Of a DNA stretch of 64,000 bases, positions 56,242-59,609 are shown one piece after another; the stretch's first letter is position 1; every line of letters begins with the position of its first letter. The notes under the pieces were generated by a model that was given only the letters and a program-made list of their open reading frames with translations, ran no database searches and was not told where the DNA came from. The stretch is from assembly GCF_058153355.1 (NCBI RefSeq), contig NZ_CM177019.1. One strand, written 5' to 3'. Both the position numbers and the translations under genes were made by a program.

Positions 56242-58860
56242 TCATTGTTGAGCCAAAGCCTGATCCGATGGTTGTGCCGTTTCGCTCCGCGCCGGGCGGC
56301 GCGGAATAAACGATACAACCCAGGAAACCAGAGAAGTCAGCACACGGAATATGCCCTTCACCGAAGAAGGCGCAAACTCCGCCAGATGGCGGTAGCCACG
56401 GAAGCCGAGCTTCAGAATATCCAGCAGACTTTCCAGCGGCTTATCTTCCGGATAGCTGTCCTGCCAGAGCGCCCATGTATCCGCACGGGCAAACGTACAC
56501 TGCACAAAATCGATATGTTGCTGGGTGGTGAGCGGCATTAATTTCAGCCCAACTTCATTACCCATCACGCGCGCCACCTGGGCCGGGAAGACGTATTCTT
56601 GCTGACCGCGTTTAAGCAACAGATTCACTTTCTGCCCTTCCAGAATCTGTGCCTGACCGTTGATCTTGATCCCCAAACCACCGTCGGAGAAATCCTGAAC
56701 GGTACACGAGAAGAGGTGACCATCTTCGCGGGCAATTGCCGCGGGCATCGTCATCTCCACGCGGTGCGATCGGCGAACCTGTTTGCTTTCTACCGATACC
56801 GCTACCGCACCACCGAGAATAATCAGGTTGTAGAACACCCACACCATACTGACGATGACAGTGAGCATCTCGGTTGGCGGGCCGTAGAAGTAACGCCAGA
56901 TACCGACCGCAATACCGACCAGGTTGAGCAATACCAGGAAAATGTAGGGCCGTGAGATCACCCAGTCGACGTACTCTTCTTCCACCAGTCCACCTTTGGC
57001 GGTGACGTTAAATTTGCCTTTGTGCGGGTTAATCAGCGCCACCAGCGTCGGTGGTGCGATATACCACGCCAGCACCGTTTCGTAGATTTCACTCCAGAAA
57101 GAGTGGCGATATTTGCCCTGGATCTTCGAGTTGGTCAGGCTGGCGTGAATCATATGCGGCAGCACGAACAGGGCGATCATCAACGCTGGCGCATAGATGA
57201 TGTAGGCATGCAGCAGCAGGAACGCCAGCGGCGCAGTCAGGAAGATCAGTCTTGGAATGCCCGACAAGAAATGGAACATGGCGTTGACGTAGCACAGCCG
57301 CTGAGCAAACTTCAGCCCTTTACCGGTGAGCGGGTTATCAAGACGGAAGATTTGCACCATCCCCCGCGCCCAGCGAATACGTTGGCCGATATGCGCCGAC
57401 AGACTTTCGGTCGCCAGCCCCGCCGCCTGTGGAATACGCATATACGCTGAAGTGTAGCCACGACGGTGCAGACGCAGAGAAGTATGCGCATCTTCGGTTA
57501 CCGTTTCGACGGCAATACCGCCAATCTCATCCAGCGGCTTACGACGAATCACCGCACAGGAACCGCAGAAGAAAGTGGCATCCCACATATCATTGCCGTC
57601 CTGCACCAGACCATAAAACAGCGTGCCTTCGTTTGGCGTTTTACGAAAACGTCCCAGGTTACGTTCAAACGGATCCGGTGAGAAGAAGTGGTGCGGCGTC
57701 TGCATCATCGCCAACTGTTTTTCTTTCAGGAACCAGCCCATGGTCATTTGCAGGAATGAGCGCGTCGGCACGTGGTCGCAGTCGAAAATCGACACGAACT
57801 CGCCTTTGGCATATTTCAGCGCATTGTTGATGTTGCCTGCTTTCGCATGTTCATGAGTGGTACGGGCGATATATTTCACCCCCACGTTTTGTGCAAACTG
57901 GCGAAACTCTTCCCTGCCGCCGTCATCGAGGATCCAGATGTTCAGCTTGTCTTTCGGCCAGTCGATACCCAGCGAGGCGTAAATCGTATTTTTCACCACG
58001 TTGAGATCTTCGTTGTAAGTCGGGACAAAGATATCTACCGACGGCCACAGCGACATATCTTTCGGCAACGGTACTGGCTGACGATTCAGCGGCCATACCA
58101 CCTGGAAGTAGCCGAGCACCAGCACAATCCACGCGTACGTTTCAGCGAACAGCAGTATAAGCCCGCACACCAGACTGACCGGATCGTCCCAGTTCAGCGT
58201 AGAGGTGTAGCGCCACCAGATATAACGGCAAGAAACGGTCAGCGACAGCACAATCAACATTAGCGCCGAGAAGCGCCCCGGCATCCGCCGTACGATCAGC
58301 GCTACACCCCACAGCAGCATCAGGAAGATAAACTGCGCCAGCGGGTTAAACGGCTGGGTAACGCAGATTAACGCCAGAATCAGCGAGAAGGTGACGATGA
58401 TACCGAGGATCAACCGCCGCGCCCCGGCGCTCAAATGGCCGAGTTCTTTTTTCTCATCGAGATGCTGTGTTTTATGGCTAACGCGCTCAGGCAGCTCGTT
58501 CATCCATTGATGGTAACGTCCACGAATATTCTGCAGACCTGAAAATGTCCGCCTGCGGGGTTTCGGCGTTTCTTTGCGCGATGTACCGATCAGTAACCAG
58601 CAGGTTTGAATGAGATAACGGACCGGGTCCAGCGGACGCGGACGCGAGGCGTTGATATGCGGATACAGGTTTTTATGTTCTGCGCGAATACGCTGCCAGC
58701 GCGGGTGCTCCAGCGGAATAAAAATCCAGGCCAGGATCAACCAAAAACAGCCGAGCGTCGCGCTGAAAGCCGACGCGCCGTGACGACGATAATCGCGATA
58801 ACGCCCGATAAGCCGCGCGTTGACCGGCGGGATAAGCAACCACCGGGTCAGGATACTCAT
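56242..58860 (-). CDS. bcsA: Cellulose synthase catalytic subunit BcsA (GT2 plus PilZ), 872 aa
   Basis: ORF 56242..58908 trimmed to MSILTRWLLIPPVNARLIGRY...; QxxRW motif (QRIRWARG); ATGA overlap with the bcsQ stop. Confidence 0.9.
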   Translation of the reverse strand: MSILTRWLLIPPVNARLIGRYRDYRRHGASAFSATLGCFWLILAWIFIPLEHPRWQRIRAEHKNLYPHINASRPRPLDPVRYLIQTCWLLIGTSRKETPKPRRRTFSGLQNIRGRYHQWMNELPERVSHKTQHLDEKKELGHLSAGARRLILGIIVTFSLILALICVTQPFNPLAQFIFLMLLWGVALIVRRMPGRFSALMLIVLSLTVSCRYIWWRYTSTLNWDDPVSLVCGLILLFAETYAWIVLVLGYFQVVWPLNRQPVPLPKDMSLWPSVDIFVPTYNEDLNVVKNTIYASLGIDWPKDKLNIWILDDGGREEFRQFAQNVGVKYIARTTHEHAKAGNINNALKYAKGEFVSIFDCDHVPTRSFLQMTMGWFLKEKQLAMMQTPHHFFSPDPFERNLGRFRKTPNEGTLFYGLVQDGNDMWDATFFCGSCAVIRRKPLDEIGGIAVETVTEDAHTSLRLHRRGYTSAYMRIPQAAGLATESLSAHIGQRIRWARGMVQIFRLDNPLTGKGLKFAQRLCYVNAMFHFLSGIPRLIFLTAPLAFLLLHAYIIYAPALMIALFVLPHMIHASLTNSKIQGKYRHSFWSEIYETVLAWYIAPPTLVALINPHKGKFNVTAKGGLVEEEYVDWVISRPYIFLVLLNLVGIAVGIWRYFYGPPTEMLTVIVSMVWVFYNLIILGGAVAVSVESKQVRRSHRVEMTMPAAIAREDGHLFSCTVQDFSDGGLGIKINGQAQILEGQKVNLLLKRGQQEYVFPAQVARVMGNEVGLKLMPLTTQQHIDFVQCTFARADTWALWQDSYPEDKPLESLLDILKLGFRGYRHLAEFAPSSVKGIFRVLTSLVSWVVSFIPRRPARSETAQPSDQALAQQ

Positions 58861-59609
58861 GATGCACTCCCGACTGGCGTTTTCAGCCCGGAATAGTTCA
58901 ACAGGCACCAGTTAGCCAGCGTCAGTATCTCTTCAGCCGCCAGCGCATCACTGCGGTATTCGCCGACTGGTTGCTTAGCCGCCAGGCATTGAGCCATCGC
59001 TTCATCACGATGAATGAGCATTGGCAGTAATCGGCGCTGGCTTTGCAACCAAAGCTGGTAAATATCGTCCTGAACCTGACTGCCGATACGGAAGTCATTA
59101 ATCAAAATATGCGCGCCATCCGGCAGCGCCTGCTGATGCAGCCGGATATGGCAGTTGGCATCCACATTGACGATTGCCAGCGAGTGATCGCACAAACTCA
59201 GCAGCTGGTGGGTTATCTGCGAGGCATCACGCGGTAAGTCGATTAAAATCCACTGGTAACGCCCGCTGGCTTTTAGTTGCTGTAAGCCGGAGCAAATATC
59301 GCTCAGCCGGGTTTGCCAGTGCTGTGGATTTTCTTGTTCTTCAATGGATAACTGACCAAAAGGCAGCAAATCGAGTTGCGAGGTATAGCGCAACCCGGCG
59401 TCACGCCAGTCCTGACCGTCCAGCATGGCTCTGGCCCAGCCCTGACGGTGGGTAAAATCAACGTTAAATGACAGGCGCAACAAGTTGTCCGGGCAGGCAT
59501 CGACCACCAGGACATCTTCTCCCAACATTTGTAATGACCAGGCTAATGCGGCAGTGATGGTTGTTGTTCCCACGCCTCCCCGCACCCCCTGCAATCCCAG
59601 TACGGCCAT
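58857..59609 (-). CDS. bcsQ: Cellulose biosynthesis ParA/MinD-like ATPase BcsQ, intact (250 aa)
   Basis: ORF 58857..59609; MAVLGLQGVRGGVGTTTITAAL... has Leu at codon 6 with no premature stop. Confidence 0.9.
   Translation of the reverse strand: MAVLGLQGVRGGVGTTTITAALAWSLQMLGEDVLVVDACPDNLLRLSFNVDFTHRQGWARAMLDGQDWRDAGLRYTSQLDLLPFGQLSIEEQENPQHWQTRLSDICSGLQQLKASGRYQWILIDLPRDASQITHQLLSLCDHSLAIVNVDANCHIRLHQQALPDGAHILINDFRIGSQVQDDIYQLWLQSQRRLLPMLIHRDEAMAQCLAAKQPVGEYRSDALAAEEILTLANWCLLNYSGLKTPVGSAS

Follow-up and report, generated by a model that had tools for sequence, protein, structure and literature searches.

Laboratory strains of E. coli K-12 carry a broken bcsQ, in which a 17T>A change turns codon 6 from TTG into TAG (PMC5944007). 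Does the bcsQ encoded in the 64,000-nt stretch of DNA analysed here (the window) share this defect and, if not, is the cellulose machinery around it complete, and does an intact gene set the strain apart? Here, we propose that positions 58857-59609 hold wild-type bcsQ within a complete E. coli-type (Type II) bcs locus from a non-K-12, chuA-positive lineage, a reading to which we assign a probability of about 95%. The locus is a known wild-type Type II system with nothing novel about it, and the intact sixth codon, which a first-pass annotation had correctly noticed, is ordinary: what is peculiar is the broken bcsQ of K-12 laboratory strains.

The bcsQ open reading frame runs from an ATG start to a TGA end and translates into a 250-aa BcsQ beginning MAVLGLQGVRGGVGTTT. 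The diagnostic base for codon 6 is position 59593 of the window (gene position 17), and at this base the window differs from a probe specific for the TAG allele. In direct comparison, K-12 MC4100 has TAG at codon 6 and reads MAVLG*QGV, and the window has TTG at 59592-59594 with no stop; the K-12-type null allele (TAG at codon 6, 17T>A) is thus absent. The first-pass annotation had claimed both that K-12 has a stop at this codon and that the present sequence has a leucine there and encodes the full 250-aa ATPase, and it was right on both counts, the former agreeing with the published 17T>A change (PMC5944007) as well as with our reading of MC4100.

BcsQ matches the NCBIfam equivalog NF007460 over residues 1-250 of 250, exceeds the cut-off of a second model (Table 1), and aligns from 1 to 250 with the crystallised protein 6ybu_A of the PDB (E=4e-167, 4 substitutions). 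RefSeq WP_032185391.1, the BcsQ of the closest complete genome, has the very same sequence (100% identity), and 584 public contigs carry it exactly, so that chance can be set aside for this reading frame. The translation holds all of the deviant Walker A motif (R10...T15 T16 T17) and of the C39/D41 pair in switch I, both described for E. coli BcsQ, along with D150, N152, R156 and N171 of the ATP-sandwich dimer, residues whose mutation lowers calcofluor binding (PMC7840130). Its 98.4% identity to a BcsQ that has been characterised leads us to infer that this BcsQ would bind ATP and be required for cellulose secretion.

Is an intact codon 6 unusual? In a census that used allele-specific 55-nt probes against 5426 complete E. 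coli genomes, codon 6 was TTG in 4898 (~90%) and TAG in 349, and the TAG-allele genomes, among the matches listed, are overwhelmingly K-12 or laboratory derivatives. We therefore reject the notion that the intact codon represents an unusual allele, as the probes place TTG in the majority. Intact bcsQ is the species norm and the wild-type state, and is no distinguishing mark of the window. In K-12, the TTG>TAG change, absent here, removes BcsQ and abolishes cellulose, possibly with a polar effect on bcsA, and in strain AR3110 the repair of TAG to TTG brings cellulose back (PMC7397504).

A Type II Bcs system has nine uninterrupted genes, bcsR, Q, A, B, Z and C with the divergent bcsE, F and G, and all nine are present in the window at full length and without internal stops (Table 1). 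Each of the nine proteins scores above the cut-off of its NCBIfam equivalog over its full length, and the gene order, with bcsQ between bcsR and bcsA, is that of the RefSeq annotations of strain 2020CK-00188 and of K-12. The coordinates also confirm the tight or overlapping junctions that the first-pass annotation had ascribed to bcsR, A, B, Z, C and bcsEFG: the bcsR stop lies 11 nt from the bcsQ start, the bcsA ATG sits on the bcsQ stop in a 4-nt overlap (ATGA), gaps of 10 nt and 6 nt follow between bcsA and bcsB and between bcsB and bcsZ, and overlaps of 19 nt (bcsZ/bcsC), 4 nt (bcsE/bcsF) and 4 nt (bcsF/bcsG) complete the arrangement. Its broader claim, that the cellulose machinery is complete, holds for the genes, with nine full-length reading frames above their family cut-offs.

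Table 1. Features of the bcs locus and its neighbours in the window, with family-model scores in bits (cut-off in brackets).
Feature	Coordinates	Strand	Product or content	Family model
bcsQ	58857..59609	-	250 aa, intact; cellulose secretion subunit that binds ATP (SIMIBI, MinD/ParA-like)	NF007460, 539 (399); TIGR03371, 293.9 (157.85)
bcsQ codon 6	59592..59594	-	TTG (Leu); TAG in K-12 (direct comparison with MC4100)	
bcsR (yhjR)	59621..59809	-	62 aa, BcsQ partner	NF040717, 75.8 (46)
bcsA	56242..58860	-	872-aa catalytic cellulose synthase with PilZ domain	NF008558, 1791.6 (992)
bcsB	53892..56231	-	779-aa periplasmic co-synthase subunit	NF008325, 1383 (922)
bcsZ	52779..53885	-	368-aa periplasmic endoglucanase	NF008305, 595.9 (299)
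bcsC	49324..52797	-	1157-aa TPR and outer-membrane porin subunit	NF008520, 2195.9 (858)
bcsR/bcsE divergent intergenic (promoter) region	59810..60080	.	271 nt; aligned with K-12	
bcsE	60081..61652	+	523-aa c-di-GMP sensor	NF011619, 1186 (929)
bcsF	61649..61840	+	63-aa membrane anchor	TIGR03493, 116 (56)
bcsG	61837..63516	+	559-aa phosphoethanolamine transferase	TIGR03368, 818.7 (410)
pdeK (annotated hmsP / yhjK)	47254..49242	-	662-aa c-di-GMP phosphodiesterase; adjoins bcsC	
pdeH (yhjH)	42045..42812	-	255-aa c-di-GMP phosphodiesterase; intact; identical to the pdeH product of the closest genome	

The experimentally important residues of E. coli BcsQ, BcsR, BcsA, BcsE and BcsG are all kept. BcsR has D21, L25, F29, L31 and Y36. 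BcsA contains HAKAGN, DCDH, FFCGS, TED and QRIRW, which we take to be the GT2 cellulose synthase motifs, as well as R367 and R792, and in its PilZ domain the stretch R696RSHR...DFSDGG provides the R696RxxR and DxSxxG elements of a predicted c-di-GMP site. The R696RxxR motif is cited in earlier work that also defines the tandem I-sites of BcsE (R306ATD and R415TGD) and the catalytic S278 of BcsG (PMC11470070), all of which are found here. BcsA is 100% identical in amino acid sequence to that of the closest genome and its exact sequence is on 560 public contigs, and the exact BcsR, BcsZ and BcsG proteins are each on at least 1000.

The divergent intergenic region differs from that of K-12 by 3 substitutions and by one base in length (271 rather than 272 nt), the rest being identical, and an A-run in it is one base longer or shorter than in the closest genome. 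A scan of this region for consensus promoters and terminators is uninformative, with 2 promoter-like sites where 1.3 were expected, a number not above the shuffled expectation. When the entire window was scanned with Rfam at gathering thresholds, no RNA element lay in bcs. Elsewhere in the window, the Rfam scan matched GadY, ES205, rdlD and the shuA thermoregulator. Next to bcsC, pdeK is full length and without stops, its product being 100% identical in amino acids to HmsP of the closest genome and 99.4% to that of K-12; PdeK has been described as a local c-di-GMP sink at the cellulose synthase (PMC7397504).

In light of the locus being complete, how might it work? [quoted passage not shown] There, the complex may stabilise BcsA in a catalytically competent, c-di-GMP-bound state, with BcsB, BcsZ and BcsC predicted to see the glucan through the envelope and phosphoethanolamine predicted to be added by BcsG. 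Since the K-12 codon-6 change is absent, the locus is genetically competent, and actual cellulose output would depend on RpoS, MlrA, CsgD and DgcC and on rare missense variants within the locus.

The first-pass annotation had predicted that the strain is cellulose-proficient when c-di-GMP is supplied, and this is supported at the level of the genotype. The proviso fits published data, as the synthase can be switched on by ectopic diguanylate cyclases even when DgcC is missing (PMC7397504). The phenotype itself stays a prediction, because the needed regulators CsgD, DgcC and RpoS are encoded outside the 64,000-nt window (as is mlrA), because published strains with uninterrupted bcs genes do not always give a calcofluor signal, and because BcsB, BcsC and BcsE carry rare substitutions. 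In the wider species, bcs-disrupting mutations occur in 74 of 76 common STs (PMC10881479) and loss of function is frequent, so that some lineages are under selection against cellulose.

Could the reading frames, then, be intact and the system silent or weak, the strain being cellulose-negative through rare missense alleles or a defective csgD, dgcC, mlrA or rpoS? We consider this unlikely, if deserving of serious thought, given that BL21 and H10407 have bcs genes without premature stops and yet lack a calcofluor signal (PMC5944007). The alleles themselves are indeed rare, the exact BcsB and the exact BcsE being on only 2 public contigs each and the exact BcsC on 1. BcsB T517I departs both from K-12 and from the closest genome (position 517 is T in 14 of 15 sampled cluster members), BcsE has N206K, V394I and A518T, and BcsC, a rare mosaic allele that departs from K-12 at 14 amino acids and from the closest genome at 10, has A522V, E593A and S933G. 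Among the sampled relatives, the window stands alone with BcsB I517, BcsE K206/I394 and BcsC V522/A593/G933, although such samples, of 7-15 related sequences, gauge rarity and not effect. Against a silent system, the rare substitutions all miss the residues with a reported function, they are single changes only, and the family scores of the proteins remain far over the cut-offs; moreover, the BcsB and BcsE alleles were found in two assemblies independent of each other and are therefore inherited rather than errors, and supplied c-di-GMP, the very condition of the prediction, bypasses most regulatory defects (PMC7397504). That the locus is a recombination mosaic of a minority lineage, whose rare BcsB, BcsC and BcsE alleles quantitatively alter cellulose output or c-di-GMP sensitivity, seems to us very improbable; only about 18 of the 5426 complete genomes reach at least about 99% identity to it, and its identity to K-12 varies between 93.8% and 99.1% from one kb to another. 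Were these alleles to shift output, the locus would be a natural variant of the secretion system and not plain wild type.

Two further readings concern K-12 itself. One holds that the leucine codon arose by mistake in sequencing or assembly and that the real strain has the K-12-type stop, which we regard as barely conceivable. Nothing turned up in its favour: the DNA around codon 6 is only ~97% identical to K-12, the codon and the exact 250-aa protein are those already found in 4898 genomes and on 584 contigs, and the window carries a chu heme-uptake cluster that, to our knowledge, is no part of the K-12 acid-fitness island. The other is that the strain is an engineered or reverted K-12 derivative with codon 6 repaired, for which AR3110 offers a precedent with exactly this TAG>TTG repair (PMC7397504). 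Divergence from K-12 already refutes it, and we give it practically no weight: the bcs genes have 95.5-98.9% DNA identity to K-12, with bcsF alone identical (in DNA and protein), every Bcs protein but BcsF differs from its K-12 counterpart at 1-14 positions, identity per kb along the locus is 93.8-99.1%, and it is natural isolates that match best, with identities that do not exceed 99.4%. We thus return to wild-type bcsQ in a complete locus of a non-K-12 lineage.

For this strain, the consequence is that the cellulose-negative genotype of K-12 should not be transferred to it. Rather, the strain is to be regarded as genetically able to make pEtN-cellulose, a point that bears on biofilm, Congo-red morphotype and host interaction. 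The practical value is modest, and no research question is opened or settled, since published work already covers the K-12 defect and how it is repaired, as well as what BcsQ does.

How does the locus compare with known systems? Among plasmids, a 14-kb bcs query matched 130 places filed as such. In PLSDB, the long matches turn out to be chromosomes, or pieces of chromosomes, entered as plasmids, or else homologues in other genera (Klebsiella, Enterobacter and Salmonella, at 76-79% identity). More distantly, models of ParA, MinD and Get3 match BcsQ with E = 1e-9 to 4e-4, far under their cut-offs and mostly in the P-loop region, and MinD (4v02) is a distant PDB match. In contrast to these SIMIBI NTPases, BcsQ is without both Walker A lysines, with R10 and T15 instead, has C39 where the catalytic Asp would stand (PMC7840130), and is dedicated to the Bcs system.

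The cellulose-negative allele of K-12 (W3110, MG1655 and MC4100) has the same locus, gene order and flanks, with 97.1% DNA identity in bcsQ; apart from codon 6, the window protein differs from it by two amino acids, N32D and E207Q, and in the RefSeq annotation K-12 bcsQ starts further downstream, with a product of 242 aa. AR3110, the cellulose-proficient reference, shares with the window a TTG at codon 6 and a complete nine-gene locus (PMC7397504) but is otherwise K-12, unlike the window. Among characterised proteins, BcsQ of E. coli 1094, solved by crystallography and cryo-EM (6YAR, 6YB3, 6YBU, 9FNN; PMC7840130, PMC11470070), is also 250 aa long, aligns over its whole length with 246 identities in 250 residues, shares the deviant Walker A (R10, T15) and the ATP-sandwich residues N152, R156 and N171, and is likewise encoded between bcsR and bcsA. 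The four substitutions that part the two proteins (N32D, N172D, E207Q and K249A) touch none of R10, T15-17, C39, D41, D150, N152, R156 and N171; most of the sampled relatives have D172 and A249, and D32 and Q207, though lineage-specific, belong to the widely shared allele described above.

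Here, we find that bcsQ in the window is uninterrupted at the position where K-12 carries its stop. The translation opens MAVLGLQGVRGGVGTTTITAAL, codon 6 is TTG (Leu, 59592-59594), and comparison with the same locus of the K-12 strain MC4100 sets ATGGCCGTACTGGGATTGCAG in the window against ATGGCCGTACTGGGATAGCAG in K-12, where codon 6 is a TAG stop of which the window has no counterpart. The first-pass annotation, which had read a leucine at codon 6 and a 250-aa product, was correct to the base, as was its mention of the K-12 stop, read here in MC4100 and also published. This 17T>A change has been dated to the K-12 common ancestor (PMC5944007), and AR3110, a W3110 derivative in which TAG at codon 6 was replaced by TTG, is cellulose-proficient as a result (PMC7397504). 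The RefSeq/PGAP coding sequence for MC4100 bcsQ (12158-12886 of the comparison locus) is 242 aa, starts 3' of the codon-6 stop and bears the usual product name without a pseudogene flag, so that annotation alone masks the K-12 defect.

The rest of the cellulose locus is equally intact. Gene coordinates were transferred from strain 2020CK-00188, the closest complete genome (99.9% identity over 1.2 kb around bcsQ), and then agreed with the ORF list of the window. None of the nine genes is truncated or carries an internal stop, and all begin and end at normal start and stop codons. Junctions are tight or overlapping, as had been claimed: gaps of 11 nt (bcsR/bcsQ), 10 nt (bcsA/bcsB) and 6 nt (bcsB/bcsZ), and overlaps of 4 nt (bcsQ/bcsA, ATGA; bcsE/bcsF; bcsF/bcsG) and 19 nt (bcsZ/bcsC). 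The divergent bcsR/bcsE intergenic region (271 nt) differs from that of K-12 by 3 substitutions and one single-base length difference.

Features of the window (window positions)
Feature	Position	Strand	Remarks
IS4-type transposase ORFs	33622-34968, 1441-2787		Pfam Nterm_IS4 + DDE_Tnp_1
IS66-element ORF	2589-3197		HTH_Tnp_1
IS66-element ORF	3194-3541		TnpB_IS66
IS66-element ORF	3561-5132		DDE_Tnp_IS66
shuA/chuA 5' UTR thermoregulator	11564-11595	-	Rfam, 60.1 bits (gathering score 58)
ES205 sRNA	21266-21337	+	105 bits, gad/hde region
GadY sRNA	27117-27230	+	150 bits, gad/hde region
pdeH	42045-42812		intact
pdeK (annotated hmsP)	47254-49242		intact
bcsC	49324-52797	-	1157 aa
bcsZ	52779-53885	-	368 aa
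bcsB	53892-56231	-	779 aa
bcsA	56242-58860	-	872 aa
bcsQ	58857-59609	-	250 codons, ATG to TGA
bcsR	59621-59809	-	62 aa
bcsE	60081-61652	+	523 aa
bcsF	61649-61840	+	63 aa
bcsG	61837-63516	+	559 aa
Ldr type I toxin ORF	63603-63710	-	35 aa, Pfam Ldr_toxin
rdlD antisense RNA	63759-63824	+	Rfam, 90.4 bits

All nine proteins match their own NCBIfam equivalog models end to end, with scores that far exceed the curated cut-offs (BcsQ, NF007460, 539 bits against 399; BcsA, NF008558, 1792 against 992; BcsE, NF011619, 1186 against 929). BcsQ aligns with crystallised E. coli BcsQ (6ybu, 6yar and others) over residues 1-250 (E = 4e-167), differing by N32D, N172D, E207Q and K249A. Every residue that the structural papers name as important is present: R10, T15, T16, T17, C39, D41, D150, N152, R156 and N171 of BcsQ (PMC7840130), and the R696RxxR PilZ-linker motif, R367 and R792 of BcsA, the tandem I-sites R306ATD and R415TGD of BcsE, D21, L25, F29, L31 and Y36 of BcsR, and the catalytic S278 of BcsG (PMC11470070). 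Each protein differs from K-12 at 0-14 positions, none of them among these residues, a comparison that is relevant because these proteins of K-12 are known to be functional in a background with bcsQ restored.

BcsQ has the SIMIBI fold, dimerises around sandwiched ATP and assembles with BcsR into an R2Q2 complex (PMC7840130). By analogy with published systems, BcsF and BcsE would bring this complex to the synthase, where both BcsQ copies would contact the BcsA PilZ domain, one BcsR N-terminus would plug the GT-PilZ interface, and these contacts would stabilise the c-di-GMP-bound, catalytically competent state; BcsG would then add phosphoethanolamine via S278 (PMC11470070). The synthase is also activated when other cyclases raise global c-di-GMP (PMC7397504).

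How common is the intact allele? Two 55-nt probes were used, each centred on the variant base (position 28), which no 28-mer megablast seed can therefore miss. The TTG probe matched 4898 of 5426 complete E. coli genomes and the TAG probe 349, the TAG matches all at 100% identity; 123 genomes without a match to the 1.2-kb query make up most of those matching neither. The exact BcsQ occurs on 584 public contigs, BcsA on 560, and BcsZ, BcsG and BcsR on at least 1000 each. Given the TTG and TAG counts and the BcsQ contigs, an intact bcsQ is the wild-type state and the stop in K-12 is exceptional, as published. The TAG matches listed (40 of 349) are overwhelmingly K-12 substrains, cloning hosts and conjugation recipients (MG1655, DH1, C600, J53, MC4100 and TG1 among them). 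A few of the TAG genomes are given chicken meat, mouse gut or humans as their source, and genome sizes of 4.8-4.9 Mb occur among them. A BcsQ nonsense mutation is also common to ST167, ST617 and ST744 of the ST10 complex (PMC10881479). On both counts, the codon-6 stop may reach beyond laboratory K-12.

Could the window instead derive from an engineered K-12 with a repaired codon 6, like AR3110? This is ruled out, because per-kb identity to K-12 ranges from 93.8 to 99.1% in the bcs region, just 18 or so complete genomes match the 14-kb locus at about 99% (best 99.4%), the collinear genome carries the chu heme-uptake cluster within the acid-fitness island, and the shuA/chuA thermoregulator is present. 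By its sequence, the window is E. coli and not K-12; the chu cluster and thermoregulator mark a phylogroup that has chuA, other than A or B1. Collinearity with the closest genome places chu/shu at about 5000-20000, within the acid-fitness island (slp-dctR ... hdeAB-gadE). Divergence from K-12 is uneven along the locus (93.8% identity in 50700-51699 of bcsC and 94.2% in 56700-57699 of bcsA; 99% in bcsE-bcsG), and 9 of the 10 BcsC differences from the closest genome fall within residues 522-728, which together suggest recombination mosaicism in the bcsC-bcsA stretch (49324-58860).

Elsewhere, two IS4-type insertion sequences (33556-34981 and about 1375-2800), one of them between treF and yhjB, share a 100% identical direct repeat and are both missing from the closest genome. 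An IS66-family element of three ORFs (about 2589-5162) adjoins the copy at about 1375-2800 within a 3.9-kb insertion relative to that genome (1256-5162), downstream of an ars-region permease gene. The Ldr toxin ORF and rdlD lie just 3' of bcsG, a site with three ldr copies in the closest genome and one in MC4100, the window ending before its own count is complete. GadY and ES205 are ordinary E. coli features.

The genotype supports a competent bcs locus, with cellulose production itself a prediction. The RpoS/MlrA/CsgD/DgcC cascade is not encoded in the window. Strain 1094 was the only one of six phylogroup A strains with a calcofluor signal, and BL21 and H10407 were negative despite bcs genes free of premature stops (PMC5944007). 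Exact BcsB (T517I) and BcsE (N206K, V394I, A518T) each occur on 2 public contigs and BcsC (A522V, E593A and S933G, among others) on 1, rare alleles that may affect function; recurrence in two assemblies disfavours sequencing error for those of BcsB and BcsE. The first-pass annotation had predicted cellulose "when c-di-GMP is supplied", a hedge that disposes of the regulatory reservation and leaves that on the missense alleles in place. Because loss-of-function bcs mutations are widespread (of 76 common sequence types 74 harbour them, with more than 80% of strains affected in 14; PMC10881479), a fully intact nine-gene locus is common but not universal.

The bcsQ gene and bcs locus of the window are textbook wild-type examples of a thoroughly studied system, and what sets them apart from K-12 is a peculiarity of K-12, already known, rather than of this strain.
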